Notes under the pieces: model-generated
Databases searched by the model: none
The model's input: only the letters and a program-made list of their open reading frames with translations
Told to the model about the DNA's origin: nothing
NCBI RefSeq assembly: GCF_001457615.1
Contig: NZ_LN831024.1
Location: 3,210,001-3,242,000, forward strand
Direction: 5' to 3'
DNA from: Pseudomonas aeruginosa
GTDB lineage: Bacteria > Pseudomonadota > Gammaproteobacteria > Pseudomonadales > Pseudomonadaceae
DNA length: 32,000 nt
Made by a program: the position numbers and the translations under genes
Part shown: piece after piece, positions 1 through 21,157 of the stretch
Numbering within the stretch: the first letter of the stretch is position 1
Layout: each line of letters begins with the position of its first letter

Positions 1-219
1 GTACATCAGGCGTTGCGCGATGGTCGCGAGGAACGCCCGCGGCGAGCGGATCGACGCCGGGTCGGGGAGCATCCAGACCTGCAGGAAAGCCTCGGCGGCG
101 AGGTCTTCGGCGCTGTGGCTACAGCCGGTCTGGTAGGACAGCTTCTTGCACAGCCAGTCGTAGTTCTGCTGGAACAACTGGGCGATCAGGGTGTTCTTGA
201 TGGAGCCTTGGCTATCCAT
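1..219 (-). CDS. ECF (FecI-type) sigma factor, N-terminal 73 codons only; the gene runs off the left edge
   Basis: Absent from the ORF track because there is no stop codon in the window. The reverse complement from ATG at 219 reads MDSQGSIKNTLIAQLFQQNYDWLCKKLSYQTGCSHSAEDLAAEAFLQVWMLPDPASIRSPRAFLATIAQRLMY. This is a typical region-2 start of FecI-like ECF sigmas (AEDLxxEAFL). It lies next to a TonB-dependent transducer cluster. Confidence 0.8.
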   Translation of the reverse strand, partial: MDSQGSIKNTLIAQLFQQNYDWLCKKLSYQTGCSHSAEDLAAEAFLQVWMLPDPASIRSPRAFLATIAQRLMY

Positions 220-321
220 GGTAAGCGTTCGCTGCTGGCAGGCCACGCCACGGATAGCGGTAGTGAGCCTGGAGGTTGAGGAACGGCGCCCGGGGCTGTT
301 CCCGTGGCGCACGGTAGGGAA

Positions 322-1518
322 TCAATCGAGGCGCTCCCGGCAGTCCGCCGTGCCCGCCGCCGGCCGCTGCGCGGACAGCCAGCCGCAGGCGGCGGCGCCG
401 AGGATCAGCGCGGCGCCCCACCAGGGGAGCGCGCGCACCGCCACCTGGTCCACCAGGATCGCGCCGATGAAGGCGCCCAGGGCCACGCCCAGCTGGATCG
501 CGCTGGTGTTGAGGCTGATCTGGATCGCCGCGGTGTCCGGGCTGAGTTCCACCAGGTATTTCTGGATCGCCGGCCCCGGCGCCATGTTGAACACGCACCA
601 GAACACCACCGCGCCCAGCAGCAGCGGCAGGCCGCCGGTGGCGAACGGCAGCAGGACCAGGGCCAGTGCATGCAGGAGCAGGAAGGCGACGAAGGTGGCC
701 GGCCCCGGCCAGCGGTCGGCGGCACGTCCGCCGAGCAGCGCGCCGAGGATGCCGCCGCCCCCGTAGACCAGCAGGACCAGGCTGATGGTCGGTTTGTCGA
801 GGGCCATGCTGCCGACCAGGAACGGCACGATGTAGGTGTAGACGGTGAACTGGCCGGTCATCTGCAACAGCGATGCCAGGTGGGCGAACGGCACCCGGCC
901 CCGGGCCAGCGCCCGCAGTTGCTCCGCCGGGGCGATGCCGGGCGCGCCGGGTATGGCCGGCAGCAGGCGCAGGAGCAGCGGCAGGCCGAGCAACGCGACC
1001 CCGGCGAGCAGCAGGAACAGGCTACGCCAGCCCCAGAACTCGCCGATCAGGGTGCCCAGCGGTACGCCCAGCACCAGTGAGGCGACGATGCCGGCAAACA
1101 CCAGGCCGATCGCCCGGCCGCGCCGTTCCGGTGCGACGATGGCCACCGCCAGGGTGATCGCCACCACCACAATGACCGAGGCACTGGCCGCCACCAGCAG
1201 CCGGCTCGCCAGCAACAGGGCGAAGCTCGGCGCGGCGGCGCTGGCCAGGTTGGCGCCGATGAACGCCAGCAGCGCGCCGGCCAGCAGGCGGCGGCGCTCG
1301 ATGCCGGCGCTGAGGTAGACCAGCAGCGGGCCGAGCAGCGCATAGACCAGCGCGTACAGGCTCATCAGCAACCCGGCCCGGCCCTGGCTGACGGCGAAAC
1401 TGGCGGCCAGTTCGTCGAGCACCCCGGCCACCACCAGTTCCACCGTGCCGACCACGAAGGCCAGCCCGGCCAGCAGCCAGACGCCCACCTCCGCCCTGCT
1501 CCGTTCAGTCTCGCCCAT
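322..1518 (-). CDS. MFS transporter (398 aa)
   Basis: C-terminal part of track ORF 322..1710. It is hydrophobic throughout with multiple predicted TM helices (LLAGLAFVVGTVELVVAGV, LLGPLLVYLSAGIERRRLL, and so on). I chose the start MGETERS at 1518 because GGGGAGG lies about 9 nt upstream. The upstream extension MARSSPSPSPSPS is low-complexity and overlaps the preceding gene. Confidence 0.8.
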   Translation of the reverse strand: MGETERSRAEVGVWLLAGLAFVVGTVELVVAGVLDELAASFAVSQGRAGLLMSLYALVYALLGPLLVYLSAGIERRRLLAGALLAFIGANLASAAAPSFALLLASRLLVAASASVIVVVAITLAVAIVAPERRGRAIGLVFAGIVASLVLGVPLGTLIGEFWGWRSLFLLLAGVALLGLPLLLRLLPAIPGAPGIAPAEQLRALARGRVPFAHLASLLQMTGQFTVYTYIVPFLVGSMALDKPTISLVLLVYGGGGILGALLGGRAADRWPGPATFVAFLLLHALALVLLPFATGGLPLLLGAVVFWCVFNMAPGPAIQKYLVELSPDTAAIQISLNTSAIQLGVALGAFIGAILVDQVAVRALPWWGAALILGAAACGWLSAQRPAAGTADCRERLD

Positions 1519-2788
1519 GGCTGCGTGCCTCCCCGTCGATGGCATAGCGATAGCGCCCGAGCATGACCAGCAGCCCTGCCGCCACGCCGAACGCGCCGAG
1601 CAGGACCAGCGTCGAGCCCGCGTAGGAGCCCGCGCGGTCGTAGAAGTAACCCAGCAGCCAGGACCCCAGGCTGATGGCGATGGCGAAGGTGAAGGGCTGG
1701 ATCGAGCCATAGATCACGCTGAAATGGCGCAGGCCGAAGTAGCGGCTGACGAAGTACTGGGTGGTGCCGGTCTCGCCGCCGGCGCCCAGGCCGATCAGGA
1801 ACACCGCGCCCCAGAGCAGCGCCGGCGGTCCGCCAAGGAGCAGGAGCAGCAGCCCGAGCGCCGCCAGCAGGGCGAACGGCAAGGCGATGCGCGGGGTGTC
1901 GTAGCGGTCCAGCAGGTAGCCCAGCGCCGGTTGCGAAACGATCATGCCGACCCACAGCGCCGCCAGCACGTCGGTGGCGACTTCCCGCGACAGGCCGCGC
2001 TCCTGCAACAGCGGCACGCCATGCACCATCACGCCGGTGACGGCGAACACGCCGAGGATCAGGTTGCCGACGATTAGCCAGAAGTCCGCCGAGCGCCAGG
2101 CCTGGCCTGGCGTCGCTCCGGGCAGCGCGCCGGCTGGCGGGCGCCGCGCCTGCGGCAGGTCGCCGGGCCGCTCGCGGAACAGCGCGTAGAGCAGCGGCAG
2201 CGCCAGCAGGCCTTCGAGCAGGCCATAGACGAGGAAGGTGGCACGCCAGCCGAAGGCGTCGATGCAGGCGCTGCCCAGGTACAGCGCCAGTGGCCCGCCG
2301 ACGCCGAAGCCGAGTCCGAGGATGCCGTAGGCTGCGCCGCGACGACGCTCGAACCAGCCGCCGAGAATCCGCGCATAGGGAATGTTGCCCGGCGTCAGCA
2401 GGCCGAGCAGCGCGAACAGCAGGTATAGCTGCCAGCCGCTGCGCGCCAGCGCCAGGCTGGCCAGGCACAGGGCCAGCGCGGCGGTCAGCGGCAGGACCAG
2501 GGCGCGCGCGCCCCAGCGATCCACCAGCCAGCCCTTCAGCGGGCTGCTCAGGGCTACCGCCAGGCCCAGCAGGGTCACCGGCAGTGCCGACTGGCCACGG
2601 TCCCAGTCCAGGTCGGCGGCGATCGGCTCGATGAACAGCGAAAAGCTGCTGATCACCAGCCCGGTGGGGCCGAAGATCACCCCCACTACCGAGGCCAGCA
2701 GCACCCCACAACTGGCCACGCCGAACTCGCCGACGCCAGGCGCCGCCGGCGCGACGTCCTCCATGGCCTCGCGGGCGACGCCGCTCAT
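1505..2788 (-). CDS. MFS transporter (427 aa)
   Basis: Last 427 codons of track ORF 1505..5266. The sequence is a 12-TM-like hydrophobic protein containing GWLVDRWGAR, an MFS loop 2-3 type motif. The start ATG at 2788 overlaps the upstream stop as ATGA. The stop at 1505 overlaps the next start by 14 nt. Confidence 0.8.
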   Translation of the reverse strand: MSGVAREAMEDVAPAAPGVGEFGVASCGVLLASVVGVIFGPTGLVISSFSLFIEPIAADLDWDRGQSALPVTLLGLAVALSSPLKGWLVDRWGARALVLPLTAALALCLASLALARSGWQLYLLFALLGLLTPGNIPYARILGGWFERRRGAAYGILGLGFGVGGPLALYLGSACIDAFGWRATFLVYGLLEGLLALPLLYALFRERPGDLPQARRPPAGALPGATPGQAWRSADFWLIVGNLILGVFAVTGVMVHGVPLLQERGLSREVATDVLAALWVGMIVSQPALGYLLDRYDTPRIALPFALLAALGLLLLLLGGPPALLWGAVFLIGLGAGGETGTTQYFVSRYFGLRHFSVIYGSIQPFTFAIAISLGSWLLGYFYDRAGSYAGSTLVLLGAFGVAAGLLVMLGRYRYAIDGEARSHGRD

Positions 2789-3864
2789 GCGTCGCGCCTC
2801 AGGCGCTCGATCAGTTGGCGGCGCAAGCGGATGTCCTCGGCGTTCTCGGTGGTGGCCTCGAGCTGGACGATCTCGATGCCGGCGCGATGAAAGGCCAGGA
2901 TCTGTTCCGCCACCTCGCCGACGCTGCCCACCAGCACCCCGGCGAAGCTGCGCTGCACGGTATTCGCCACCCATTCGCGCAAGGCCTCCGGCGCCAGCCG
3001 GGCGAGCCGGTCGCGCTCGCCGTCGCGGGCGACCTGCGGCGATGCCGCCAGTTCGTCGAGGGGCCGTGCCAGAAGCAGTTCGAAAGCGGCCTGGCGGTAG
3101 TGCTCGGCGATGTCCAGGGCCGCCGCCGGACTGTCGCCGAGGATCACCTGGAAGTGCTTCCAGAACTTCAGCCGCCGTCCCTGCTCCGCCGCCTCCTCGT
3201 TCAGCCTGCGCTTGAGCTCCGCGGTCTGCGTGGGGCTGGCGAAGTGGCCGGCGTAGACGTCGGCGAAGCGCACCGCCAGGCGTTGTGCCTGCGCCGAGGA
3301 GCCGCCAACGGATAGCGGCGGGCGCGGCCGCTGGATCGGCAGGAAGCCGCTGCCGGCGTCCTCCAGCCGGTAGAACTCGCCGTGGTAGTCGAAGGGTTCG
3401 CGGCTTTCCAGGGCGCGGGTGAAGACCTCCAGGTACTCCACGGCGCGCCGGTAGCGTTCGTCCTTGTCGGCGAAGTCGCCGTCGCGGCGCACGTCGGCGT
3501 CGCTGGAGCCGATCACCAGGTGTACGCCGGCGCGCCCGTTGGACAGGCCGTCGAGAGTGGCCAGGGCGCGCGCGGCAACGGTCGGCTGGGCGCTCCCCGG
3601 TCGGTGCGCGACGGTGGCGCGCAGGCGCGGCGCCGCGGCCAAAGCCCAGCCGGCGACCAGCCAGGGGTCGGGCCAGGCAGCGGAAACGGTGAACAGCGCG
3701 CCGTCGAGGCCGTCCGCCTCTTCCAGGCGGGCCTTCTGCTGGATGTCGAAGGCGCTCACCGCGCGACTGCGGGTGTCCGGCAGGAAACGCGCGGCCTGGC
3801 GGGCGAAGGCACTGTCGCCGATGACCGCGGAGGCGCGCACGCCGCCGCGCAGTTCGATGCTCAT
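2785..3864 (-). CDS. Luciferase-like (flavin-dependent) monooxygenase family protein (359 aa)
   Basis: Track ORF 2785..3864. Length and sequence pattern fit the bacterial luciferase-like LLM fold (GRAGVHLVIGSSD, LSVGGSS, VGSVGEVAEQILAFHRAGIEIVQL). A strong AAGGAGG lies upstream of the ATG at 3864. Confidence 0.65.
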   Translation of the reverse strand: MSIELRGGVRASAVIGDSAFARQAARFLPDTRSRAVSAFDIQQKARLEEADGLDGALFTVSAAWPDPWLVAGWALAAAPRLRATVAHRPGSAQPTVAARALATLDGLSNGRAGVHLVIGSSDADVRRDGDFADKDERYRRAVEYLEVFTRALESREPFDYHGEFYRLEDAGSGFLPIQRPRPPLSVGGSSAQAQRLAVRFADVYAGHFASPTQTAELKRRLNEEAAEQGRRLKFWKHFQVILGDSPAAALDIAEHYRQAAFELLLARPLDELAASPQVARDGERDRLARLAPEALREWVANTVQRSFAGVLVGSVGEVAEQILAFHRAGIEIVQLEATTENAEDIRLRRQLIERLRRDA

Positions 3865-3876
3865 GGTTCGTCCTCC

Positions 3877-6528
3877 TTAGAAGGTGTAGGCCGCGCCGAG
3901 GTAGTAGAAGGCGCCGTTGAAGCTGATCTGCGAGGCATAGGTGTCGTACTGGTTGAAGCCGAGGTAGGCGCTCTCGGCCGGCAGCTTGTCGGGCTTCACG
4001 TCGAACAGATTGTTGGCCCCGGCGCTCAGGGTCAGGTTGCGGCTCGCCGCATAGCGCAGGGCAACGTCGGTGATGTACTTGGGCGAATTCTCGAAGCGGT
4101 TGAAGACCGTGGTCGAATAGGCGTGCTCGCCGGTGTAGTAGTCCAGTTCGGAAACCGTCTTGCTGTAGCGCGTTTCGCGCAGGGTCAGGCCCCAGCGCCG
4201 GTAGCTCCAGTCGGCCTGCAGGCTGACCTGGCTGCGCGGCGTGGAACTGGTGATCCAGGCCTGCTGCTGGTCGTTGAGCAGCGGCTGGCCGTTGCGCCCG
4301 CGATGATTCCTGACCAGCTTCGTGCGATTGACGTTGGCGCCCAGGCGCCAGTCGATCCGGCCCCACTCGCCGAGCCGGGTCAGGTAACTGGCGGTGAGGT
4401 CGAGGCCGTGGGTACGGGTGTCGGCGCCGTTGGTCATGTAGTGGGTGCTGACCTGGGTCAGTCCGGCCGGGATGCTGATCCCGCCGGCGCGCAGCGCATC
4501 GATCGCCGGCTGTCCGGAATAGGTGGCACCGTCGACGATGCGGTCGCGGATCTCGATGCGATAGGCGTCGATGGCCAGGTTCAGGTCCGGCAAGGGATCG
4601 AGCACCAGGCCGAGGTTGTAGCTGATCGACTTTTCCGGCTCCAGGTCCTCGGCGCCGAGCAGCCTGGCCGCCGGCGAGTTGACCGCCAGCAGGCCGCTGG
4701 CGATGGTCGGCGAGACACCCAGGCTGGTGTAGTTCTCCTGGGCCAGCGACGGTGCGCGGAAGCCGCTGCTGAGACTGGCCCGCGCCGATACCTCGGGGCT
4801 GAAGCGGTAGCGGCTGGCGAGCTTGCCGTTGGTGGTGCTGCCGAAGTCGCTGTAGTGCTCGTAGCGCGCCGCCGTCTCCAGTTGCCAGCGCTCGTCGAGG
4901 GCGGTGGACAGGTCGAGATAGGCGCCGAGCACGTCGCGGCTCCACTGTCCGGCGGTGGCCGGCGCCTGCCCGGGGAGCGCCTTGGAACCGCCGTTGTAGT
5001 AGGACCAGGGATCGCCGGCCTCGACCTCGTAGAGCTCGCGGCGCTGCTCCAGGCCCCAGGAGAAATTCAGCGGCGCCGGCAGCCAGGCGAGGTCGAAGTC
5101 GCGGCGCAGGTCGAGATTGTTGGTCCACTGGGTGGCCTTGTAGCGCGCCAGGTCGAAGGAGCGCGGCGAATCGCCGGTCTCGCCGTAGAGGGCGAGGTTG
5201 ATCGAATGGTCCATGCCGATCTCCGGGCGGTCGGCGCCGTAGGTCGAGCTGAGGTCCCAGTCCCAAGCGCCGAACAGCTCGCCGCCACGGGCGCCGAGGG
5301 TCAGCGAATAGTCGTCCTCGTCGCTGGTGATGCGCGGGGTGAAGCCGTTCGGATAGAGTCGCGGCGCCAGGGACGGCAACTGGTAGATCTGCGCCGAGGA
5401 CACCGAGCGATGGGTATAGGTGGCGAAGCTGTACAGCTCGACGTTGTCGTCCAGCGCCACGCCGGCGTTGTAGGCCAGCGCCTGGCGGTGCAGCGAAGGG
5501 TCGCCGATGGACGGGTTGCCGTAGTGCCCGGTACGCTGGTCGATGCCGGCGCGGATGGTCCGCGCCTGTTCGCGGAACTGCGCGCTGAGGTTGAGGAAAC
5601 CGCTCTCGCCGAAACGCAGGCCGCCATTCACCCCGCCGTTCTGGGTCAGGCCGTCGCCATCGCCGTAGCGACCGTTGTCGTAGGCGAGCCGGCCGCCGTG
5701 GTCGGCCGACTTGAGGATGACGTTGATCACCCCGGCGATGGCGTCCGAGCCGTACTGCGCCGAGGCGCCGTCGCGCAGCACCTCGATGCGCTCGATGGCG
5801 GCGAGCGGGATGGTATCCAGGTCGACCCCGGTGGAGCCGCTCTGCAGCCCGCCGCTGACATTGATGTTGGCGGTCTCGTGACGGCGCTTGCCGTTCACCA
5901 GCACCAGCACGTGGTTGGGACTCAGGCCGCGCAGCGACTGCGCGTTGGTCAGCGCCGAAGCGTTGTAGGCCTGGGCCTGGCGCGACAGCGAGGGCAGCAG
6001 GCGCACCAGGGCGTCGCGCAGGTCGCCGCTGCCACTGTCGCGCAATTGCTCGGCGCTGACCACATCGATCGGTGCCAGGCTCTCGCCGGCCTTGACATCG
6101 GCCTTGCGGGTGCCGGTGACCACCACCGTGGCCAGGGTCCCGGCGGGCTTCGCCGCCGGCAGCGCGGCATCCGGCGCCGTGGCGCGTTGCAGGCTGAGCA
6201 CGCCGGCGGCGCTGCGGATGTATTCCAGGCCGCTGCCCTGCAAGGCCCGCTGCAGCGCCTGCTCGACGCTGTAGGAGCCCTGGATCGCCGGTGCCGGCAG
6301 GCCCTCCACCAGGTGCTGGTCGAAGGCGATCGGGGTGCGACTCTGGCGGACTATGCTCAGCAGTACCTGGGCCAGTTCGCCGGCCGGGATGTCGAAGCGC
6401 TGGATCTCGGCGCGGCTGGTGGCGCGGACCTCCTCTGCCGCCGACTCGCCGGGCTGGCCAAGGCAGGCCAGGCCGACCGCGCAGAGCACGGGGACGAGTC
6501 GAAGACGTGGCGAACGCGGGTTGGGCAT
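3877..6528 (-). CDS. TonB-dependent transducer: outer-membrane receptor with an N-terminal signalling (STN) extension (883 aa)
   Basis: In-frame part of track ORF 3877..7110, starting at MPNPRSPRLRLVPVLCAVGLACLG (signal peptide). An STN-like segment follows (FDIPAGELAQVLLSIVRQSRTPIAFD...QGSYSVEQALQRALQGSGLEY). Next come the plug ([37 protein letters not shown]) and a beta-barrel ending in the terminal aromatic ...GAAYTF. Confidence 0.9.
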   Translation of the reverse strand: MPNPRSPRLRLVPVLCAVGLACLGQPGESAAEEVRATSRAEIQRFDIPAGELAQVLLSIVRQSRTPIAFDQHLVEGLPAPAIQGSYSVEQALQRALQGSGLEYIRSAAGVLSLQRATAPDAALPAAKPAGTLATVVVTGTRKADVKAGESLAPIDVVSAEQLRDSGSGDLRDALVRLLPSLSRQAQAYNASALTNAQSLRGLSPNHVLVLVNGKRRHETANINVSGGLQSGSTGVDLDTIPLAAIERIEVLRDGASAQYGSDAIAGVINVILKSADHGGRLAYDNGRYGDGDGLTQNGGVNGGLRFGESGFLNLSAQFREQARTIRAGIDQRTGHYGNPSIGDPSLHRQALAYNAGVALDDNVELYSFATYTHRSVSSAQIYQLPSLAPRLYPNGFTPRITSDEDDYSLTLGARGGELFGAWDWDLSSTYGADRPEIGMDHSINLALYGETGDSPRSFDLARYKATQWTNNLDLRRDFDLAWLPAPLNFSWGLEQRRELYEVEAGDPWSYYNGGSKALPGQAPATAGQWSRDVLGAYLDLSTALDERWQLETAARYEHYSDFGSTTNGKLASRYRFSPEVSARASLSSGFRAPSLAQENYTSLGVSPTIASGLLAVNSPAARLLGAEDLEPEKSISYNLGLVLDPLPDLNLAIDAYRIEIRDRIVDGATYSGQPAIDALRAGGISIPAGLTQVSTHYMTNGADTRTHGLDLTASYLTRLGEWGRIDWRLGANVNRTKLVRNHRGRNGQPLLNDQQQAWITSSTPRSQVSLQADWSYRRWGLTLRETRYSKTVSELDYYTGEHAYSTTVFNRFENSPKYITDVALRYAASRNLTLSAGANNLFDVKPDKLPAESAYLGFNQYDTYASQISFNGAFYYLGAAYTF

Positions 6529-6559
6529 GGTCGGTTCATCCTTGATCGGTTGCGGATGC

Positions 6560-6592
6560 CACCGAGTGCAATTGCCCGTACCGATTTTCAGC
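6560..6592 (-). promoter_or_regulatory. Candidate ECF-type promoter upstream of the transducer gene
   Basis: The minus strand reads GCTGAAAATCGGTACGGGCAATTGCACTCGGTGG. It has a GAAAAT -35-like element and a TCGG -10-like element about 18 nt apart, within the 91-bp gap before the receptor ATG. This is a pattern match by eye only. Confidence 0.2.
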
Positions 6593-6619
6593 CGCGCGGC
6601 AGACCGATTGCGCATAAGG

Positions 6620-7468: not shown

Positions 7469-8108
7469 GTACGCCTGCTCCTTGGTTGAGGCTGTCCGCC
7501 GTGATGGTCCATACGCAGCCGTGGCCTTGCGGCTCTTCGTAGAGCCGCCAGTCGGCGCGGCAATCGCTGGCGGCGACGAACGCCGACAGCAGCTTGGTGC
7601 AATAGGTGCAGGCCGACTCCAGGGTGATCGGCACGCCTCGGGCGCGGGCGCGCTCGCGGTAGTCCCAGATCGCGCAGTGACGGTTGTGGAATACCGCGCG
7701 CCCGTCAGCCTCGGCCTGCACCTCGAAACGCGAACCGTAGAGCGCGGCCTGGCGTGCCAGGCGGTCGGCGGCGCTGGCCGGATCGCCCCGTCCCGCCGGT
7801 TCCAGCGCGCGATAGATCCGCGCGGTGGCGCGCGCCCAGTCGTCGAGCCGGTAATCCGCCGGGCGCGCGACGATGAACTGTTCGATCAGCGCCTGGGCGC
7901 GGAAGAACACCGCCTGCCAGGCTTCGGCGCGCAGGTCGTCGGTCGCCGGCAGATCGGCGAATATCCGCGCGCTGGTCGCCACCCAGTCCCCCAGGTCTTC
8001 ACGCCGATGGCGCTCGGCGACGTAGGCGGACATCGCCGCGTGCACCTCGAACACCCGCTGTCGCCAGAGCGTCGCCTGCGCCGCCGGATCGCGTTCGACG
8101 GCGCTCAT
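7452..8108 (-). CDS. Hypothetical protein with a C-terminal four-Cys cluster (218 aa); possibly ATC-hydrolase-like family
   Basis: In-frame part of track ORF 7452..8378, starting at MSAVERDPAAQ. The ATG at 8108 overlaps the upstream stop as ATGA. Codon usage is like its neighbours. The C-terminus reads AVFHNRHCAIWD...ESACTYCTKLL...SDCRADW...GHGCVWTI. The family assignment is from remembered motif architecture only. Confidence 0.6.
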   Translation of the reverse strand: MSAVERDPAAQATLWRQRVFEVHAAMSAYVAERHRREDLGDWVATSARIFADLPATDDLRAEAWQAVFFRAQALIEQFIVARPADYRLDDWARATARIYRALEPAGRGDPASAADRLARQAALYGSRFEVQAEADGRAVFHNRHCAIWDYRERARARGVPITLESACTYCTKLLSAFVAASDCRADWRLYEEPQGHGCVWTITADSLNQGAGVHERDH

Positions 8109-9007
8109 CGGAGCGCCTCCCGGTGGCTGGCGAGAAACCCCAGCAGGTGCTCCAGCACGGCGTCCGGCGCGTCCTCGGGAAGCATGTGGCTGGCGCCGAT
8201 GGCGGCGCCCTCGACCTGCCCGGCCCAGGTCTTCCAGATTTCCAGCGGATGCTGCCCGGCGGCGTAGGGGCGCTCCTGCCAGAGCACCTGGACCGGGCAT
8301 TGCAGGCGCCGGCCGGCGTCGCGATCGGCCTGGTCGGCGTCGGCATCGACGCCCACCGCGGCCCGGTAGTCCTCGCACATCGCATGGCGCACGGCGGGGT
8401 CGCGGAACGCCCGGCGGTAACTTTCCAGCGCCTGCGGGTGGTAGATGTCGCGGCCCTGGGCCATGCGTCGCAGGGTGTAGTCGAGGAAGTGCTCCGGATC
8501 GGCGCCGATCAGGCGCTCCGGCAGGTCGTACGGCTGGGCGAGGAGGAACCAGTGGTAGGCGTTGAGGGCGAAGGCCTTGTTCACCGCGGCCCAGTTGTCG
8601 AGGATCGGCACCACGGTCAGCGAGACGAAGGCCGCGACCGCTTGCGGATGGTCCAGCGCCAGGCGATAGCCGACCCGCGCGCCGCGGTCGTGGCCGATCA
8701 CCGCGAAGCGTTCGAAGCCTAGCTGGCCCATCGTTTCCAGTTGGTCGCGGGCCAGCGCGGCCTTGGAATAGTCGGCGCCCTCCTCGTCCAGCGCCCGCGA
8801 TTCGCCATAGCCGCGCAGGTCGGCGAGGACCACGCTGTAGTCCTCGGCCAGGCGCGGAGCGATGCGATGCCAGGCCAGGTGGGTCTGCGGATAGCCATGC
8901 AACAGCAGCAGCGGCGGGCCGCTGCCCTTCACGGCGACGCGGAGGCGCGCGGCAGAGGTGTGCAGGGTCAGGTAGTCGAAGCCGGGCAGCAACGGATCGG
9001 TATTCAT
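8105..9007 (-). CDS. Alpha/beta-fold hydrolase, epoxide hydrolase / haloacetate dehalogenase-like (300 aa)
   Basis: In-frame part of track ORF 8105..9121, starting at MNTDPLLPGFDY. It contains LLLLHGYPQTHLAWHRIAP (oxyanion HGxP), the nucleophile elbow VIGHDRGARVGY and a C-terminal catalytic His context ASHMLPEDAP. Confidence 0.85.
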   Translation of the reverse strand: MNTDPLLPGFDYLTLHTSAARLRVAVKGSGPPLLLLHGYPQTHLAWHRIAPRLAEDYSVVLADLRGYGESRALDEEGADYSKAALARDQLETMGQLGFERFAVIGHDRGARVGYRLALDHPQAVAAFVSLTVVPILDNWAAVNKAFALNAYHWFLLAQPYDLPERLIGADPEHFLDYTLRRMAQGRDIYHPQALESYRRAFRDPAVRHAMCEDYRAAVGVDADADQADRDAGRRLQCPVQVLWQERPYAAGQHPLEIWKTWAGQVEGAAIGASHMLPEDAPDAVLEHLLGFLASHREALR

Positions 9008-9017
9008 GGGCGGCGCC

Positions 9018-9527
9018 TCACAGGATGATGCTGATGCGCCGCTGGGCGCTGATGGTCTCGTGGTCCAGGCGGATCTCCCGCGAGACGATGCGCAAGCCCT
9101 CGGGGCCGTCGCGCAGGACATGACTGGCTTCGCCGACGAAGCTCCAGGCCTCGCGGTTGCGGAACTGATGGACGACGAAGTTGCTGCGGCTGCTGACCAG
9201 TTCGCCCTCGACCCGCTTCAGCCGCACGTTGCCCACCAGGCGGCGGGTGCGCGAGCGCGGCTGCTCCATCCAGGTATGCCCGCCGAGGATGCTGTCGACC
9301 CGCTCGCGCAGGCGCACGTGGTCGTCGTCGATGATGTACAGGCTGTCCTCCGGCGCCTGGCCGGCCAGTTGCTCCTGCAAGGGCAGCACCCGGTAGCGTG
9401 CGGCGCGCTCGAACAGCGCGAACCAGGTATCCAGCAGGCGGTCGTCGAGCAGCTCGGCTTCGGCGACGAGGAAATCGCTGACCCGCGCCAGCAGGTCGCT
9501 GTCGGGACGGGACAAGGCAAGGCTCAT
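9018..9527 (-). CDS. Aromatic-ring-hydroxylating oxygenase beta (small) subunit (169 aa)
   Basis: Track ORF 9018..9527. Size and pattern fit NTF2-like beta subunits (VSDFLVAEAELLDDRLLDTWFALF...RRLVGNVRL...SSRSNFVVHQFR). GGAGG lies upstream of the ATG at 9527. Confidence 0.8.
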   Translation of the reverse strand: MSLALSRPDSDLLARVSDFLVAEAELLDDRLLDTWFALFERAARYRVLPLQEQLAGQAPEDSLYIIDDDHVRLRERVDSILGGHTWMEQPRSRTRRLVGNVRLKRVEGELVSSRSNFVVHQFRNREAWSFVGEASHVLRDGPEGLRIVSREIRLDHETISAQRRISIIL

Positions 9528-9554
9528 GAGTATCCTCCGGGAAGAAAGTGCCGC

Positions 9555-11387
9555 TCAGAGGCTGATGTCGACCCCATGGCGGGTCAGCCAGCGGTCCAGG
9601 TTCAGCAGGTAGGCCAGGCCGGCGGTCGGGCTCGCCGAGGCACGCGGGCTGGGCAGCGGCGTGCCCTGTTCGAGAGCCTGGCGGACCCGCCCGGCGTCCA
9701 CCAGTTCGAACAGCGGCGAGCGGCCGTCGTCGAGCAGGCGGCCGACCCGCTCGCGCAGCAGCGCCAGGTAACGTGGGTCGGGGTTGGCCGGGAAACCGCT
9801 CTTGCGCCGCTCCAGGATCGCCTGCGGCAGGTGCCCGCGCAGGGCCCGGCGCAGCAGGCTCTTGCTTTCCCCGGCGACGCTCTTCAGCGCCCAGGGCAGG
9901 TTCCATACGTACTCCACCAGGCGGTGGTCGCAGAACGGCACGCGCACTTCCAGGCCGACCGCCATGCTCATCCGGTCCTTGCGTTCGAGCATCGCCGGCA
10001 GCCAGCGGCTCAGCGCCAGGTAGGCGACCTCGCGCTGGCGTCGCTGGGCGGCATCCTCGCCATCCAGCCGCGGCACTTCGGCGAGGGCCTCGCGGTAGCG
10101 CGCCCGGATGTATTCCGGCGCCGCCACCCGTTCGGCGACCTCCCGCCGCAGCAGTTGCCAGGGCCCGCTCTTGCCGGCCAGCCAGGGGAAGCCGTCGTGT
10201 GCGAGGGCGCTCGGGTCGTGGAAGAACGGGTAGCCGCCGAACACCTCGTCGGCCGACTCGCCCGACAGTGCCACCGTGGTGTGCTCGCGGACCTGGCGGA
10301 ACAGCAGGTAGAGCGAGGCGTCCAGCTCGCCCCAGCCGGGCAGGTCGCGGGCCTGGAGCACCGCCTCGTCCTGTTCCAGCACCTCTTCCGGGGCGACCAG
10401 CACGGTACGGTGCGGCGTACCGAGGAAGTTCGCCGCCAGCTGCGCATAGGGTTCGTCCCAGCTGCTTTGCCAGGGCGTCGGGACGAAGCCGCGGCCTTCG
10501 CCGGGGAAGTCCACGGAGAAGGTCGGCAGGCGCCGCGCGTCGCCATCCAGCGCGGCCACCGCGAAGGCGCTGATGGCGCTGGAGTCGAGCCCACCGGAAA
10601 GCAGGCTGCCCAGCGGGACGTCGGCCACCAGTTGCTCGGCCACTGCCTCGCGGAGCAACTGGCCGGCGCGTTCGGCGCTGTCCTCGGCACCCTCTTCGTG
10701 ACGTTCCGCGCGCAGCGCCCAGTAGACCAACTCGCGCACACCATTGCGGTCGAAGCGCAGCGCCTGGCCCGGCCGGACCTGGCGCAGGCCCTTGTACAGG
10801 CCGTGGCCGGGAGTCGGCGCGGTGGTCAGGGCGAACAGCTCGGCGATGCCGCTGGCGTCGAGCACCGGGTTGGCCTCGGGGTTGGCGAAGATCGCCTTGG
10901 GTTCCGAGGCGAACAGCACGCCTCCGGCGGTCGGGTAGTAGTACAGCGGCTTGACCCCGAAGCGATCGCGCACCAGCCACAGGCTCTGCTCGCGCTCGTC
11001 CCACAGGGCGAAGCCGTAGATGCCGCGGAGCCGGGCGAAGGAAGCCTCGCCCCATTGCAGATAGGCGCGCAGCACCACTTCGGTGTCCGAGCGGGTGCGG
11101 AAGACCTGGCCCAGCGTCTCCAGCTCGGCGCGCAGCTCGCGGAAGTTGTAGACCTCGCCGCTGTAGGTCAGCGCCACCCGCCCGCCCGCCTCGGCAAGCA
11201 TCGGTTGAGCACCGTTCTCCAGGTCGATGATCGCCAGGCGCCGATGGCCGAGCAGCGCGTGCCGCGACAGCCACAGGCCTTCGGCGTCCGGCCCGCGCGG
11301 GGCCAGGGTACGGGTCATGCGTTCGAGGATGCTGCGCTGCTCGCCGAGGTCGCGGCTCCAGTCGGTCCAGCCGGTGATTCCACACAT
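9555..11387 (-). CDS. Asparagine synthetase B-like glutamine amidotransferase / adenylating enzyme (610 aa)
   Basis: Track ORF 9555..11387. The N-terminal Ntn nucleophile MCGITGW (class II GATase) is followed by HRGPD-like RGPDAEG. The PP-loop SLLSGGLDSSAISA marks the synthetase domain. Confidence 0.9.
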   Translation of the reverse strand: MCGITGWTDWSRDLGEQRSILERMTRTLAPRGPDAEGLWLSRHALLGHRRLAIIDLENGAQPMLAEAGGRVALTYSGEVYNFRELRAELETLGQVFRTRSDTEVVLRAYLQWGEASFARLRGIYGFALWDEREQSLWLVRDRFGVKPLYYYPTAGGVLFASEPKAIFANPEANPVLDASGIAELFALTTAPTPGHGLYKGLRQVRPGQALRFDRNGVRELVYWALRAERHEEGAEDSAERAGQLLREAVAEQLVADVPLGSLLSGGLDSSAISAFAVAALDGDARRLPTFSVDFPGEGRGFVPTPWQSSWDEPYAQLAANFLGTPHRTVLVAPEEVLEQDEAVLQARDLPGWGELDASLYLLFRQVREHTTVALSGESADEVFGGYPFFHDPSALAHDGFPWLAGKSGPWQLLRREVAERVAAPEYIRARYREALAEVPRLDGEDAAQRRQREVAYLALSRWLPAMLERKDRMSMAVGLEVRVPFCDHRLVEYVWNLPWALKSVAGESKSLLRRALRGHLPQAILERRKSGFPANPDPRYLALLRERVGRLLDDGRSPLFELVDAGRVRQALEQGTPLPSPRASASPTAGLAYLLNLDRWLTRHGVDISL

Positions 11388-11474
11388 GGATGACGTTCCT
11401 TGCAGTGACCCTTTATTCCCCGCGTAGCCAGGGCGGCGCGCAGGGATCTGCAGGGAGCGATGGTTGAAGACGGC

Positions 11475-12749
11475 TCAGACGGCCACGGCGAGACGCCGCA
11501 GGGCGGCGGGCTGCTGCCCGAGCCGGCGGCTCCATTCGCGCCAGAAGCCGCGGTTCTGTTCCTCGTCGACGTGGCGGCGGGTTGCCGGTCCCATGCCGCG
11601 GGAGAAATCGCTGTAGCCGAGGGCGGCGTGGGCGTAGGCGCGCTGACAGGATTCGAGGATCTCGACGTCGTCGGGGGTGCCGAAACCGCCCGGGCCGATG
11701 AACGAGATCAACCCATTGATCCGCGCCGCCCGCTCCTCGCGGGTCTCATCGGCGAAGCCGGCGCCCCATACGGTGACGCTGACCTCATCGGCGGCGGTCG
11801 GGAAGAACGAGCGGATGTTCAGGCCGAGGATGTCGTTGATCACCAGGTTGGGAAAGATGAACAGGCTTTTGTTGGTGTGGGCGATGTCCTCCGCCCGCGC
11901 CTGCCCGAAGCGTTCCACCAGGCGTTCGAACTTGGCGGCGATGGACGGCTTGAGCGCTTCCGGGAACAGCGGGCTCCAGTAGGCGATCGGCCGTCCGGTG
12001 GACGGCGGGCCGCTGATGATCAGTGCGTGGCCGTTGCCCAGCGCTTCGCCGCGGCCATGGCGCTTGTGCGACTCCGGATCGGTGCCGAGGCTATTCAGGT
12101 ATTCCAGGTAGCGCTTGTGGGCGAACGGCAGGTGGTAGGCGTCCACGCCGTTTTCCGCGAGCAGCTTCCAGTTGGCCTTGATCGAATGCTCGAAGCCGCC
12201 GGGAATGATCTCCAGTTCCGCCTCGGACTGGTCGCAGATCAGGTCGATATAGTCCTTCGCCTGGCCCAGGTAGGTTTCCAGGGACGCTTGCCGGGCGCCG
12301 TAGTGGATGAACAGGAAGTTGCGGTAGATCGCGTGTTTCACCCGTGTCAGGGACAGCTCCGGATGGCATTGCCCGGCGTGTTGGTAGGCGGCCTTGTCCG
12401 GCAGGCCGATCAGGCTGCCGTGGCTGTCGTAGGTCCAGCCATGGTAGGGACAGGTGAAACGCTGGCTGTTGCCCTGGCGCTCGGCGCAGACTTTGGCCCC
12501 ACGGTGCGCGCAGGCGTTCAGGTAGACCGCCGGCTCGCCATCGGCGCGACGCTGGATGATCAGGTTGCGCCCGCCGACGTCGCGGGTGATGAAGTCGCCG
12601 GGCTCGCGCAGCTCGCTGAGGTGGGCGGCATACAGCCAGCTGTCGTCGAATATCTCGTGCAGTTCGCGCCGGTGCAGTTCCGCGGAAACATAGGCCTGGC
12701 GCCTGACCCGGAAGTAACTTGCGTCGTCGGTCTCGATATATTCACTCAC
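11475..12749 (-). CDS. Rieske [2Fe-2S] non-haem-iron oxygenase alpha (large) subunit (424 aa)
   Basis: Track ORF 11475..12749 with a GTG start and GGAGG 7 nt upstream. The Rieske motif is CAHRGAKVC...CPYHGW. The catalytic iron motif is NWKLLAENGVDAYHLPFAH. Confidence 0.9.
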   Translation of the reverse strand: MSEYIETDDASYFRVRRQAYVSAELHRRELHEIFDDSWLYAAHLSELREPGDFITRDVGGRNLIIQRRADGEPAVYLNACAHRGAKVCAERQGNSQRFTCPYHGWTYDSHGSLIGLPDKAAYQHAGQCHPELSLTRVKHAIYRNFLFIHYGARQASLETYLGQAKDYIDLICDQSEAELEIIPGGFEHSIKANWKLLAENGVDAYHLPFAHKRYLEYLNSLGTDPESHKRHGRGEALGNGHALIISGPPSTGRPIAYWSPLFPEALKPSIAAKFERLVERFGQARAEDIAHTNKSLFIFPNLVINDILGLNIRSFFPTAADEVSVTVWGAGFADETREERAARINGLISFIGPGGFGTPDDVEILESCQRAYAHAALGYSDFSRGMGPATRRHVDEEQNRGFWREWSRRLGQQPAALRRLAVAV

Positions 12750-12875
12750 CGCCTAACCTCCGTGTAACGTTGACAACCCGGCAACGGGGACGGAGGAAAC
12801 CTAGCACGGGGAAAATCAATTCCGGCAGACTATTTATTCATTAGCTAATAACTCGTAACCCCATGAAAAAAGACA

Positions 12876-12887
12876 AAATAATTATTT
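12876..12887. promoter_or_regulatory. Perfect 12-bp palindrome AAATAATTATTT inside an AT-rich island upstream of the Rieske-led gene array
   Basis: Read directly from the sequence. It lies in the 201-bp gap (12750-12950) between the Rieske alpha start and the kynR stop. That gap is far more AT-rich than the rest of the window. Confidence 0.4.
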
Positions 12888-12950
12888 CCCTCGGCGACTG
12901 AAAATTCGTCCCTCTCATTGCACTCATGCTTTTATGAGGGGTCGCCCCGT

Positions 12951-13427: not shown

Positions 13428-13559
13428 GTGCAGTTCCTATCAGAATGAATAGCTATCTTCGAATTTTGTGCGAACAGATTGCCATGCGACCTTGCATTTC
13501 GCACGAAAATTCTCCGAAATCTCGTTCATTATCATTCGCTGAATTTCCGGAGAAAAACA
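13428..13559. promoter_or_regulatory. Divergent kynR / kynBU control region
   Basis: A 132-bp AT-enriched gap between divergent starts. It contains the inverted repeat GTGCGAA (13468-13474) / TTCGCAC (13498-13504) and repeated CGAAA(A)T units. Confidence 0.5.
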
Positions 13560-17017: not shown

Positions 17018-17028
17018 GCGCTCTCCGC

Positions 17029-19177: not shown

Positions 19178-19216
19178 GCCGGCCCCGCCCACATGCCCAA
19201 TAGAGAGAACCGCCCG

Positions 19217-21152: not shown

Positions 21153-21157
21153 CTCCC

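Follow-up and report, generated by a model that had tools for sequence, protein, structure and literature searches.

Gene content of the PA2083-PA2094 locus

Ten open reading frames (ORFs) on the minus strand of the 32,000-nucleotide stretch of Pseudomonas aeruginosa DNA analyzed here (the window) run in one direction between positions 322 and 12749. A gap of 102 bp separates them from an ORF that starts at position 219 and continues beyond the left window edge. Recomputed coordinates gave junctions of +87, +27, +10, -4, -17, +91, +12, -4, and -14 bp between the ten genes, in exact agreement with a preliminary description made from the letters of this DNA. Third-position GC ranges from 0.84 to 0.93 in the ten ORFs, and a GGAGG-type ribosome-binding site precedes most of them. 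The array is the PA2083-PA2094 locus of P. aeruginosa PAO1, of which the window holds PA2083 to PA2092 and the start of PA2093. All ten products are exact same-length matches to P. aeruginosa proteins, the gene order is that of PAO1 from PA2083 to PA2092 and then PA2093, and the right flank (kynR, kynB, kynU, a GGDEF/EAL gene, and fusA2) also follows the PAO1 order. The exact sequences of 7 of the 10 proteins are recorded on at least 1000 contigs; those of the methyltransferase, the receptor, and the PA2091-type MFS protein occur on 39 to 79 contigs, with near-identical cluster members on at least 1000. The genes are as follows.

11475-12749, minus strand: Rieske non-heme-iron oxygenase alpha subunit, PA2083 (by order and annotation), 424 aa, GTG start
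9555-11387, minus strand: AsnB-like glutamine-dependent amidotransferase, PA2084, 610 aa, N-terminal Cys2 (MCGITGW), SGGLDSS PP-loop
9018-9527, minus strand: Rieske oxygenase beta subunit, PA2085, 169 aa, Pfam Ring_hydroxyl_B (3.4e-43)
8105-9007, minus strand: alpha/beta hydrolase of the fluoroacetate-dehalogenase/epoxide-hydrolase type, PA2086, 300 aa, GHDRG nucleophile motif
7452-8108, minus strand: 4-Cys protein of a small uncharacterized family, PA2087, 218 aa, no Pfam or NCBIfam family
6620-7468, minus strand: class I SAM-dependent methyltransferase, PA2088, 282 aa, Pfam Methyltransf_25/11/23/12/31
3877-6528, minus strand: TonB-dependent transducer with N-terminal signaling domain, PA2089, 883 aa, Pfam STN, Plug, and TonB_dep_Rec_b-barrel
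2785-3864, minus strand: SsuD-like luciferase-type flavin monooxygenase, PA2090, 359 aa, Pfam Bac_luciferase (2.3e-47)
1505-2788, minus strand: MFS transporter of the lactate/oxalate:formate type, PA2091, 427 aa, Pfam MFS_1
322-1518, minus strand: MFS transporter of the DHA1 efflux type, PA2092, 398 aa, Pfam MFS_1 and MFS_4
1-219, minus strand: first 73 codons of the ECF sigma gene PA2093, Sigma70_r2 (2.1e-10), the rest lying left of the window

Pfam profile searches confirmed every domain assignment of the preliminary description, the 4-Cys protein alone being without a family. The adjoining ECF sigma gene is likewise borne out, and the anti-sigma gene lies left of the window: the 73-residue fragment matches Sigma70_r2, PA2093 orthologues in the related loci L001, L002, and L010 display 82 to 84% identity, and a DUF4880/FecR anti-sigma gene follows the full sigma gene in L001. 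As had also been claimed, no NRPS or NIS domain, nor any opine-synthase domain, was detected among the ten proteins (Pfam and NCBIfam).

The alpha subunit PA2083 (Rieske, 1.3e-18; Ring_hydroxyl_A, 3.1e-14) has its best PDB matches in the alpha subunits of naphthalene, benzene, biphenyl, and 3-phenylpropionate dioxygenases, and its best NCBIfam scores, 237 bits for benA and 202 bits for antA, are both far under the equivalog cut-offs (781 bits for BenA). According to Pfam, the Pseudomonas array encodes neither a reductase or ferredoxin for the Rieske oxygenase nor a flavin reductase. The best PDB match of PA2084 (Asn_synthase, 2.9e-101, plus GATase_6/7) is the hydroxyamidotransferase TsnB9 (7ylz; 544 bits, 44% identity). 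In a tree, PA2084 and the amidotransferases linked to the 4-Cys protein form their own clade apart from TsnB9, which falls among ordinary actinobacterial AsnB proteins (53 to 57% identity). PA2086 differs by one residue from PDB 4b9a ("probable epoxide hydrolase"), the next matches being fluoroacetate dehalogenases (285 bits). PA2087, previously termed a four-Cys hypothetical protein, indeed belongs to no family but contains five Cys residues, four of which (C145, C167, C170, and C198) are invariant, together with H144, in an alignment of 24 homologues. Its AF2 model (pLDDT 88.7) gave a weak H-NOX-like fold match (E, 1.2e-3; TM, 0.41 to 0.47), and the family has only 58 cluster representatives in 1.84 billion proteins. 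PA2088 weakly matches the Tam and BioC carboxyl methyltransferases in NCBIfam. Sulfonatases that cleave C-S bonds (SsuD, SfnG, and MsuD) account for four of the top five and 7 of the 11 PDB matches of PA2090; since this protein scores 153 bits against a cut-off of 510 for the NCBIfam alkanesulfonate monooxygenase, C-S cleavage is a resemblance and not a demonstrated family membership. The transducer PA2089 has been named optL (PMC5971595). The NCBIfam scores of the MFS proteins are 114 bits (SfMCT) and 79 bits (oxalate/formate antiporter) for PA2091 and 208 bits (sugar efflux) and 188 bits (Cmx/CmrA) for PA2092.

Response to sulfur starvation and promoter-like motifs

Sulfate limitation induces PA2093 and the locus (PMC6555301). 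In sulfur-starved PAO1, the locus is increased by log2 values of 3.0 to 4.6 (8- to 24-fold) for RNA and of 1.2 to 4.0 for protein, the RNA values being 4.59 for PA2083, 3.69 for PA2084, 3.27 for PA2086, 3.19 for PA2087, 3.02 for PA2089, 3.64 for PA2090, 3.28 for PA2093, and 3.20 for PA2094 (PMC12581299 supplements). Under the same conditions, pyoverdine and pyochelin genes, including pvdD, pvdQ, and pchR, drop, as does foxI (PMC12581299 supplements). The PA14 orthologues of the locus co-vary with the ssu, tau, and ats genes. Cys plus internal Met residues account for 51 of 4070 positions (1.25%) in the ten proteins versus 104 of 3733 (2.79%) in seven further window genes (Fisher P = 1.3e-6). 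PA2090 contains no Cys and no internal Met, and PA2089 contains two of each (0.45%). Their low Cys and Met content allows the array proteins to be synthesized during a shortage of sulfur. Sulfur sparing and induction by sulfur starvation bear on the timing of synthesis and not on function.

Three sequence elements were located upstream of the transducer gene and of the first gene.

6564-6590, minus strand: motif TGAAAAT-N13-TTGCACTC, candidate ECF-sigma-dependent promoter, its end lying 35 nt before the transducer start codon
12899-12925, plus strand: second exact copy of the motif, in the orientation opposite to that of the array, roughly 150 bp before the first gene
12798-12852, minus strand: block upstream of the first gene, GTTATTAGCTAA, then TTTTCC..GTGCTAGGTT, conserved by eye in three Pseudomonas species

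The window contains two exact copies of the motif versus 0.24 expected. With identical spacing, it also precedes the transducer genes of L001, L002, and L010, as well as a second transducer paralogue in L010. In three Pseudomonas species, the receptor gene is preceded by the conserved form TGAAAA-N14-TGCACTC, a candidate promoter for the PA2093 sigma factor assigned purely by conservation. Against this assignment, the inverted copy upstream of the first gene, which has one-mismatch counterparts at the equivalent position in L001 and L010, is left unexplained. The block at 12798 to 12852 may comprise an activator site and a weak sigma-70 -10 element. Scoring of positions 1 to 13500 gave no consensus sigma-70 promoter, and no Fur box was found with up to three mismatches allowed.

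Comparison with known systems

The FecIRA-type cell-surface signaling systems of Pseudomonas (FpvA/FpvR/FpvI, FoxAIR, FiuAIR, HasRIS, and others) likewise combine an STN transducer with an ECF sigma factor and an adjoining FecR-type anti-sigma factor, and the conserved promoter-like motif directly upstream of the receptor gene is a further likeness. However, these systems are controlled by iron and Fur and serve iron carriers, whereas the array lacks a Fur box, is induced by sulfur starvation, and encodes sulfur-spared proteins; its receptor gene lies among genes for six enzymes and two MFS proteins, with the sigma and anti-sigma genes downstream rather than upstream.

The ssuEADCBF, msuEDC, sfnG, and atsRBCA/atsK systems of Pseudomonas resemble the array in their induction by sulfur limitation, their paucity of Cys and Met, and their SsuD-like FMNH2-type monooxygenase. 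TonB-dependent SftP of Pseudomonas putida participates in organosulfur scavenging under sulfate starvation, as described in the literature from the Kertesz group, and a TonB-dependent outer membrane step is common to the scavenging systems and the array. Unlike in these systems, PA2090 is not an equivalog of SsuD, MsuD, or SfnG, the Pseudomonas array lacks an SsuE-type reductase and an ABC importer, control involves an ECF sigma factor, and the Rieske, AsnB-like, methyltransferase, dehalogenase-like, and 4-Cys proteins have no counterpart.

Dibenzothiophene desulfurization by the DszABCD "4S" pathway of Rhodococcus is repressed by sulfur and removes the sulfur atom without use of the carbon, the desulfurized aromatic compound being released; it involves a two-component flavin oxygenase, a luciferase-like monooxygenase, and a flavin reductase. 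Compared by description, PA2083-PA2094-type loci lack a DszB-type desulfinase, and the Pseudomonas version has a Rieske oxygenase; Dsz, for its part, lacks the amidotransferase, methyltransferase, and importers found in these loci.

PMC13418202, and Kudo 2017 as cited in PMC5719088, present TsnB6, TsnB7, and TsnB9 as a hydroxamate-forming cassette in the biosynthesis of trichostatin A and benzohydroxamic acid. Like this cassette, the array has an oxygenase and a methyltransferase beside an ATP-dependent AsnB-like enzyme whose N-terminal Cys is intact. It differs by its oxygenase, which is a Rieske alpha/beta protein (or HpaB in relatives) and not an AurF-type diiron enzyme, by the absence of a TsnB6 helper and of polyketide synthase (PKS) or other scaffold genes, and by its regulation by sulfur.

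Relatives in other bacteria and proposed function of the locus

The synteny check in other genera called for by the preliminary description revealed the complete ten-gene set in two further Pseudomonas species and in Methylosinus. Homologues of the 4-Cys protein, the AsnB-like enzyme (52 to 63% identity), the methyltransferase (39 to 49%), the SsuD-like enzyme (44 to 48%), and the DHA1 MFS protein (29 to 37%) form joint clusters in about 80 actinomycete species. There, the place of the Rieske oxygenase is taken by an HpaB/flavin-reductase pair and that of the TonB receptor by an SBP-dependent ABC importer. Importers of this kind work in the inward direction only. The actinomycete clusters are also sulfur spared (Cys plus Met, 1.23% versus 2.02% outside the cluster; Mann-Whitney P = 9e-13), with medians of 0.00% for the SsuD-like enzyme and 0.19% for the binding protein.

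On balance, we favor by a small degree the view that the locus, under the control of surface signaling, takes up an exogenous small molecule, probably an organosulfur compound, and processes it oxygenolytically. Sulfur limitation turns on the whole block, as shown by the published omics. PA2089 would bind the ligand, import it with TonB energy, and signal via its STN domain to PA2094 and PA2093, the latter firing the TGAAAA-N14-TGCACTC promoter before the transport and monooxygenase genes, as the anatomy of the locus and the conservation of the motif suggest. The carboxylate-type PA2091 could then move the ligand to the cytoplasm, where, judging from family resemblance, PA2090 and/or PA2083/PA2085 may attack the carbon-sulfur center with release of sulfite. 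More speculatively, the AsnB-like enzyme, the methyltransferase, the dehalogenase-like hydrolase, and the 4-Cys protein might modify the carboxylated, probably aromatic remainder, and PA2092 might expel it. This reading draws on the induction by sulfur starvation, the sulfur-poor proteins, the resemblance of PA2090 to sulfonatases, the conservation of the core with an importer in actinomycetes, and the rarity of precursor-supply genes (DAHP synthase, 6 of 70 loci). Signaling control is supported by the STN receptor with its adjoining sigma and FecR-type anti-sigma genes and by the motif preceding receptor genes in three species and one paralogue. Against salvage, the array has an amidotransferase that consumes ATP and a SAM methyltransferase, enzymes that are uncommon in such pathways and typical of biosynthesis, and the roles of these two enzymes and of the 4-Cys protein are left unexplained. 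The conservation of an efflux-type MFS protein with the core, the presence of DAHP synthase, a biosynthetic hallmark, in a few actinomycete versions, and the lack of a Rieske reductase or ferredoxin or of a flavin reductase in the Pseudomonas array also argue against this reading.

As a possible but unlikely alternative, the cell may make and secrete a small aromatic amide or hydroxamate, acting as a chelator or other "-phore," and take it up again. The oxygenase, together with the AsnB-like enzyme, would convert an aromatic acid into the amide or hydroxamate, to be tailored by the methyltransferase. PA2092 would secrete the product, and PA2089 and PA2091 would retrieve it, with surface signaling as in pyoverdine systems; the product would be used only when sulfur is scarce, e.g., as a sulfur-free substitute for pyochelin or to mobilize mineral-bound sulfate. 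TsnB9, the nearest solved structure to PA2084, makes hydroxamic acids from carboxylic acids, and an AsnB-like enzyme paired with an oxygenase forms hydroxamates in natural-product clusters. An oxygenase always lies beside the AsnB-like gene (the Rieske pair in proteobacteria; HpaB plus flavin reductase in 58 to 61 of 70 actinomycete loci), the DHA1 efflux-type MFS protein is kept in 73 of 89 related loci (30 to 37% identity to PA2092), and DAHP synthase adjoins the 4-Cys gene in 6 of 70. SAM methyltransferases and amidotransferases are typical tailoring enzymes, and the MmyB-like and LuxR-type regulators of the actinomycete clusters are common in secondary metabolism. However, PA2084 and TsnB9 share only 44% identity and fall in separate clades, the AurF-family N-oxygenase and the helper TsnB6 of the Tsn cassette are absent, enzymes that would build a scaffold are lacking, and 64 of 70 loci have no genes for precursor supply. 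Iron-uptake genes drop under the condition that induces the locus, there is no Fur box, and the literature searched reports no product for the locus, which belongs to the core genome of an intensively studied organism.

It appears quite improbable that the locus is a module for stress response or detoxification during sulfur starvation that supplies no sulfur. Such a module would sense or import an environmental compound and neutralize a reactive aromatic compound or aldehyde upon collapse of the thiol pool (glutathione, mycothiol). PMC12581299 and PMC6555301 report antioxidant proteins co-induced by sulfur starvation; detoxification classically proceeds by hydroxylation, methylation, amidation, and efflux, and an aldehyde dehydrogenase and an aminotransferase are encoded in variant clusters. 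Yet a dedicated TonB importer with surface signaling and, in actinomycetes, SBP-dependent importers point to deliberate acquisition rather than defense, and the SsuD-like enzyme is both the most sulfur-spared part and among the most conserved. An ordinary operon for aromatic carbon catabolism (benzoate, anthranilate, or phenylpropionate type), suggested by automated annotation, the resemblance of the Rieske subunits to BenA/AntA and HcaE/F, the epoxide-hydrolase-like enzyme, the inclusion of PA2083 and PA2085 in an in silico PAH-degradation network (PMC5655620), and the adjoining kynurenine-to-anthranilate genes, is very improbable, since all equivalog scores are far under the cut-offs (BenA, 237 versus 781 bits), the array lacks a cis-diol dehydrogenase, a ring-cleavage dioxygenase, and a reductase (Pfam), control is by sulfur and not carbon, sulfur sparing is unexpected for a carbon pathway, and the kyn neighborhood is not conserved at the other Pseudomonas loci.

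The earlier interpretation is partly supported. Its metallophore-like headline is not supported, in view of the induction under sulfur starvation while pvd, pch, and foxI fall, the lack of a Fur box, and the Cys- and Met-poor proteins. The TsnB9 match, the best among solved structures for PA2084, keeps the metallophore idea alive; however, the separate clade of PA2084 and the absence of the AurF-type partner weaken this hint. Uptake and processing of an exogenous ligand, which had been placed on an equal footing with metallophore synthesis, is the better-supported reading. The locus is not an orphan in the sense of undescribed, because its induction by sulfate starvation had already been reported (PMC6555301); the term holds in that no assigned product or ligand for PA2083-PA2094 was found in the literature searched, as had been claimed. 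What is new is that the enzyme core of this P. aeruginosa locus is common to about 80 actinomycete species.

Anatomy and identity of the array

Recomputation of the open reading frames (ORFs) showed that ten co-directional genes extend from position 12749 down to 322 on the minus strand. The junctions between them (+87, +27, +10, -4, -17, +91, +12, -4, and -14 bp) agreed exactly with the preliminary description, as did the 102-bp gap that precedes an ORF starting at 219 and leaving the window at its left end. The 73-residue fragment encoded by this ORF (1 to 219) matched sigma-70 region 2 (Pfam Sigma70_r2), as expected for the ECF sigma gene proposed to lie beside the array, and all of the earlier domain calls were borne out by Pfam and NCBIfam. 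Third-position GC was 0.84 to 0.93 in each of the ten ORFs, most of which are preceded by a GGAGG-like ribosome-binding site; the GC content is ~0.70 across the array, in a window that is itself GC rich.

The products of the array (10/10) matched P. aeruginosa proteins exactly and over their full length. The exact sequence was present on at least 1000 contigs for seven of these proteins and on 39 to 79 contigs for the remaining three. By gene order and annotation, the array is PA2083 to PA2092 of strain PAO1, followed by PA2093 (ECF sigma). The exact matches, the PAO1 identity, and the existence of a crystallized PA2086 protein indicate that the locus belongs to the core genome of a well-studied organism and is not an undescribed one.

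Features of the array and its borders
1-219, minus strand: fragment of PA2093 (ECF sigma)
322-12749, minus strand: ten-gene array, from PA2083 (first gene, 11475-12749) to PA2092 (322-1518)
6564-6590, minus strand: promoter-like motif TGAAAAT-N13-TTGCACTC, 35 nt upstream of the start codon of the transducer gene PA2089
12899-12925, plus strand: second exact copy of the motif, inverted, ~150 bp upstream of the first array gene
12951-13427, minus strand: kynR

Between positions 1 and 13500, no consensus sigma-70 promoter was found, and the three terminator-like sites were all located within ORFs, were below the number expected by chance, and included none that was convincing inside the array. 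This lack of promoters and terminators is compatible with long polycistronic transcripts but is not proof of them. Rfam and tRNA scans returned no match.

The right flank contains genes for an Lrp-type regulator, a cyclase similar to kynurenine formamidase, kynureninase, two RoxA-like cytochromes c, a CHASE4-GGDEF-EAL protein, a paralogue of EF-G, and another TonB-dependent receptor. The adjacent genes for the RoxA-like dihaem cytochromes (17303 to 19177 and 19193 to 21121, plus strand) are flanked by ORFs without a Pfam family (16009 to 17157 and 21128 to 22237, plus strand), and the segment from 16009 to 22237 (plus strand), downstream of kynU, appears to be an uncharacterized operon. Farther right, between 22000 and 25000, the GC content falls to 0.63 to 0.64, with an AT skew of up to 0.31 near 24 to 25 kb; no Pfam family was found for a 449-residue ORF located at 22693 to 24042 (minus strand).

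Sulfur starvation and cell-surface signaling

The locus has reportedly been on record since transcriptome and signaling studies of 2007-2008. PMC6555301 names PA2083-PA2094 a predicted "extracellular sulfate locus" and states, citing Tralau 2007, that sulfate limitation induces PA2093, with PA2089 regarded as its cognate transducer and PA2090 described as a putative sulfonatase. According to the supplementary tables of PMC12581299, obtained with PAO1 in sulfur-free medium, RNA increased by log2 3.0 to 4.6 for PA2083, PA2084, PA2086, PA2087, PA2089, PA2090, PA2093, and PA2094 (the anti-sigma gene), and protein increased by log2 1.2 to 4.0 for PA2083 to PA2087, PA2089, PA2090, and PA2093. The same tables report decreases for pvdD, pvdQ, pchR, foxI, and the fpv operon under sulfur starvation. 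In published data, the PA14 orthologues (PA14_37440 to PA14_37550) co-vary with ssu, tau, and ats genes. Since the locus and its regulation were already in the literature, they are not a discovery as such. Literature searches, including searches with PAO1 and PA14 locus tags, retrieved no functional study of any array gene and no paper assigning a ligand, a product, or an enzymatic function, in keeping with the initial statement that no product or ligand had been assigned.

A low content of Cys and Met is an established property of sulfur-starvation proteins, one that Tralau reportedly described for P. aeruginosa in 2007. Counting Cys plus noninitiator Met, the ten array proteins contained 51 such residues out of 4070 (1.25%) versus 104 out of 3733 (2.79%) for seven other genes of the window (Fisher p=1.3e-6). 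PA2090 was devoid of Cys and internal Met over 359 residues, and the PA2089 transducer contained only four such residues out of 883. The Cys residues that remain in the array are mostly functional, comprising Rieske ligands, Cys2 of the amidotransferase, and four invariant Cys residues of PA2087. A similar bias was detected in the orthologous cluster of Pseudomonas sp. StFLB209 (1.54% versus 2.72%). This sulfur-spared composition agrees with the published regulation and is unexpected for a metal-starvation system. We are highly confident that the locus is part of the sulfur response and not of a metal response.

PA2089 contains a Pfam STN domain (2.3e-10, residues 67 to 115) followed by Plug and barrel domains, as do the transducers of FecIRA-type systems. 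The anti-sigma gene lies outside the window; in the StFLB209 locus, where the sequence extends far enough, a DUF4880/FecR gene comes after the sigma gene. Known FecIRA-type cell-surface-signaling systems typically have an iron/Fur-controlled sigma factor, whereas no Fur box was found within 3 mismatches in the whole window and the present locus is, according to published data, induced by sulfur starvation.

The sequence TGAAAA-N14-TGCACTC was found in three species, ahead of four receptor genes at a distance of 30 to 35 nt: besides PA2089, it precedes, with the same spacing, the transducer gene of StFLB209, that of Pseudomonas sp. LRF_L74, and a second transducer paralogue of the latter. Two exact copies occur in the window versus 0.24 expected. 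The copy at 6564 to 6590 looks as a promoter of the adjacent ECF sigma would, making it a candidate on sequence grounds. A sigma-54 reading of the motif was rejected, because P. aeruginosa misses the GG-N10-GC spacing by one and StFLB209 lacks the GG. The inverted copy points away from the array, toward kynR (antisense) and then kynB and kynU on the plus strand. Inverted copies with one mismatch are present at the equivalent place in StFLB209 and LRF_L74, whose flanks differ, and candidate roles for this element are those of a divergent promoter or a regulator site. The three Pseudomonas species also share a conserved block, GTTATTAGCTAA ... TTTTCC..GTGCTAGGTT, which lies nearer the first array gene and might combine an activator site and a weak -10 element.

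A palindrome, GCATAACCTTATGC, lies across the stop codon of PA2088 (6610 to 6623, minus strand). It is kept in StFLB209 and reads GCATAAGGTTATGC in LRF_L74, where two central bases are swapped and the symmetry is retained. Since its arms are too close to form a hairpin, it may be a protein-binding site. The second TonB-dependent receptor gene of the window (30163 to 31998, plus strand), which is PA2070 by position, leaves the window at its right end and encodes Plug and barrel domains without an STN domain. The 612 visible residues include 2 Cys and no internal Met (0.33%), and, in the published proteome of sulfur-starved cells, PA2070 was increased by log2 5.9. The product thus has the appearance of a further receptor of the sulfur-starvation response, encoded 17 kb away from the array; no TGAAAA-N14-TGCACTC motif was found upstream of its gene.

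Enzymes and transporters and their conservation in other bacteria

Sulfonatases (SsuD, SfnG, and MsuD), which are C-S-cleaving flavin monooxygenases, accounted for 7 of the 11 PDB matches of PA2090 and for four of the top five, but PA2090 itself scored far below the equivalog cutoffs of TIGR03565 (152 versus 518 bits) and SfnG (97 versus 383 bits). PA2083 and PA2085 display the domains of the subunits of an alpha3beta3 Rieske oxygenase (PF00355, PF00848, and PF00866) and are about equidistant from benzoate, anthranilate, phenylpropionate, and naphthalene enzymes; Pfam revealed no dedicated reductase or ferredoxin among the ten array genes. The alpha/beta hydrolase PA2086 is closest to fluoroacetate dehalogenases (285 bits) and contains the GHDRG Asp-nucleophile motif. 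Crystal structures are available in the PDB (4b9a and others), and include T131D and Q244E variants solved by the same depositors, a hint that the protein lacks the usual acidic residues. The protein encoded here (8105 to 9007, minus strand) differs from the crystallized PAO1 protein 4b9a by one residue, Ala145 in place of Val. PA2088 is a class I methyltransferase with weak similarity to carboxyl methyltransferases, and the MFS proteins PA2091 and PA2092 resemble lactate and oxalate:formate carriers and DHA1 efflux pumps, respectively.

No known family could be assigned to the 4-Cys protein PA2087, whose AF2 model, although confident (pLDDT 88.7), resembled an H-NOX fold only weakly (E 1.2e-3, TM ~0.45). 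A profile search retrieved 58 representatives among 1.84 billion proteins, all of the same small family. The database label "ATC hydrolase" (L-2-amino-thiazoline-4-carboxylate hydrolase) was rejected, as there was no match to Pfam ATC_hydrolase even at E<=10 and the profile search provided no remote relatives. Precomputed Pfam annotations were empty for all full-length PA2087 homologues, the sole entries being domains of neighboring genes in two fusion calls.

The complete ten-gene set and the sigma gene are present in Pseudomonas sp. StFLB209 and LRF_L74, and each of the ten genes also has a homologue in Methylosinus sp. Sm6. In the LRF_L74 locus (L010, 513 to 4608), the second transducer paralogue (570 to 3227) has the TGAAAA-N14-TGCACTC motif upstream and is followed by a PA2091-type MFS gene, upstream of the enzyme genes, indicating that the transport genes have been duplicated and rearranged relative to P. 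aeruginosa. Just upstream of the StFLB209 cluster (L001, 155 to 4831), a Pfam "Sulfatase" match was discarded as a link to sulfur, since the product is an EptA/CptA-like phosphoethanolamine transferase; its gene, which lies together with those for a cytochrome b, a PepSY protein, and a two-component system, is unrelated to sulfur scavenging.

The detection of PA2087 homologues in ~80 actinomycete species (Streptomyces, Kitasatospora, Nocardia, Micromonospora, Kutzneria, Embleya, and others) was unexpected. An AsnB homologue (42 to 63% identical to PA2084) was found within the flanks in 86 of the 89 loci, directly downstream in most actinomycete loci. Homologues of PA2088 (39 to 49%), PA2090 (44 to 48%), and PA2086 (45 to 50%) were present in 78, 45, and 20 of these loci, respectively, and a PA2092-type MFS protein in 73. 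In actinomycetes, the Rieske pair is replaced by HpaB (61/70 full loci) plus a flavin reductase (58/70), and the TonB/MFS import route by an ABC importer with a family-5 binding protein (~60/70). The clusters usually also encode a second luciferase-like enzyme and an MmyB-like regulator; DAHP synthase occurs in only 6 of the 70 loci. The binding proteins are closest, weakly, to glutathione- and dipeptide-binding proteins, and their subfamily differs between clusters, so that the ligand cannot be deduced from them.

The actinomycete clusters are also sulfur spared, with 1.23% Cys plus Met versus 2.02% in ORFs outside the clusters (Mann-Whitney p=9e-13) and medians of 0.00% for the SsuD-like enzyme and 0.19% for the binding protein; no such sparing was seen in the regulators. 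Association with sulfur limitation is therefore a trait of the module across phyla and not of P. aeruginosa alone. In two variant clusters, the 4-Cys protein is accompanied by an aldehyde dehydrogenase, an adenylating enzyme, the importer, and a class III aminotransferase, and one of these clusters also encodes a luciferase-like enzyme. In variants L007 and L009 (Nocardioides zeae and Nocardia sp.), the aminotransferases (477 and 456 residues), whose genes adjoin those for the adenylating enzyme, the aldehyde dehydrogenase, and the 4-Cys protein, contain zero Cys and zero internal Met, an extreme of sulfur sparing.

Proposed uptake and processing of an exogenous compound

The preliminary description had considered a metallophore-like system and the uptake and processing of an exogenous ligand as equal options. 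We favor the latter and hold it moderately probable that the locus mediates uptake and desulfurization. The conserved actinomycete module, with its importers, focuses the hypotheses on a compound, carboxylated and probably aromatic, that is taken up and processed. The ligand would be an exogenous organosulfur compound, from which PA2090 and/or the Rieske oxygenase would release sulfite, and TGAAAA-N14-TGCACTC would be the PA2093 promoter. More speculatively, a carboxylated aromatic remainder might be processed by the amidotransferase, the methyltransferase, the hydrolase, and the 4-Cys protein and then exported by PA2092.

The main alternative, which we consider unlikely, is that a small amide or hydroxamate is made, exported, and reimported under sulfur limitation. 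Such a role would better account for the biosynthetic-looking enzymes and the exporter but less well for the SsuD-like enzyme, for the fact that genes of precursor supply are rare, and for the lack of any reported product. Hydroxamate formation was suggested by PA2084, whose best solved-structure match was TsnB9 (7ylz; 544 bits, full length, 44% identity), an enzyme that moves hydroxylamine from glutamate gamma-hydroxamate onto a carboxylic acid (PMC13418202, PMC5719088). As TsnB9-like chemistry would yield a chelating hydroxamate and revive the metallophore idea, we tested membership in the TsnB type. In true Tsn loci, an AurF-type oxygenase gene (PF11583, TsnB7) adjoins that of TsnB9, and the Saccharothrix locus also has a small 143-residue helper gene (TsnB6); Pfam detected neither the AurF-type amide N-oxygenase nor the TsnB6 helper in the array. 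In a neighbor-joining tree, the 4-Cys-linked amidotransferases of Pseudomonas, Methylosinus, and actinomycetes formed a clade of their own, whereas TsnB9 clustered with ordinary actinobacterial AsnB (53 to 57% identity). These results argue against a TsnB9-type cassette. The hydroxamate route is retained solely as a rival mechanism, since Tsn loci and the array alike pair an oxygenase with a carboxylate-adenylating amidotransferase. The metallophore reading itself was not supported, as Pfam and NCBIfam identified, in agreement with the first analysis, no NRPS, NIS synthetase, opine/nicotianamine synthase, or further enzyme known to build chelators among the ten proteins, there is no Fur box, the sulfur-spared proteins are induced by sulfur starvation, and iron-uptake genes fall under that condition.

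Returning to uptake and processing, the conserved sulfur-spared module of actinomycetes is a useful new lead, what was previously known being the locus and its regulation. Only tentatively do we propose that the 4-Cys, AsnB-like, aromatic oxygenase, methyltransferase, SsuD-like, importer, and exporter proteins form a new sulfur-starvation-specific pathway in Pseudomonas, Methylosinus, and ~80 actinomycete species, with the 4-Cys H-NOX-like protein as its signature. Such a pathway would perform either a novel oxygenolytic C-S cleavage of a natural class of aromatic carboxylated organosulfur compounds or the synthesis of a sulfur-free secreted amide or hydroxamate used only in times of scarcity.

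Surface signaling by TonB-dependent transducers is understood nearly wholly as a matter of iron acquisition, and the same signaling hardware is here linked to the way in which a major pathogen responds to sulfur starvation. The sulfur of mucus and soil is mostly organic. The enzyme core is not peculiar to Pseudomonas, being found as a sulfur-spared module with binding-protein-dependent importers in ~80 actinomycete species, among which many genetically tractable hosts are available for finding the substrate. Should the chemistry turn out to be a new desulfurization route, or a secreted metabolite specific to starvation, knowledge of how bacteria acquire sulfur would be broadened.
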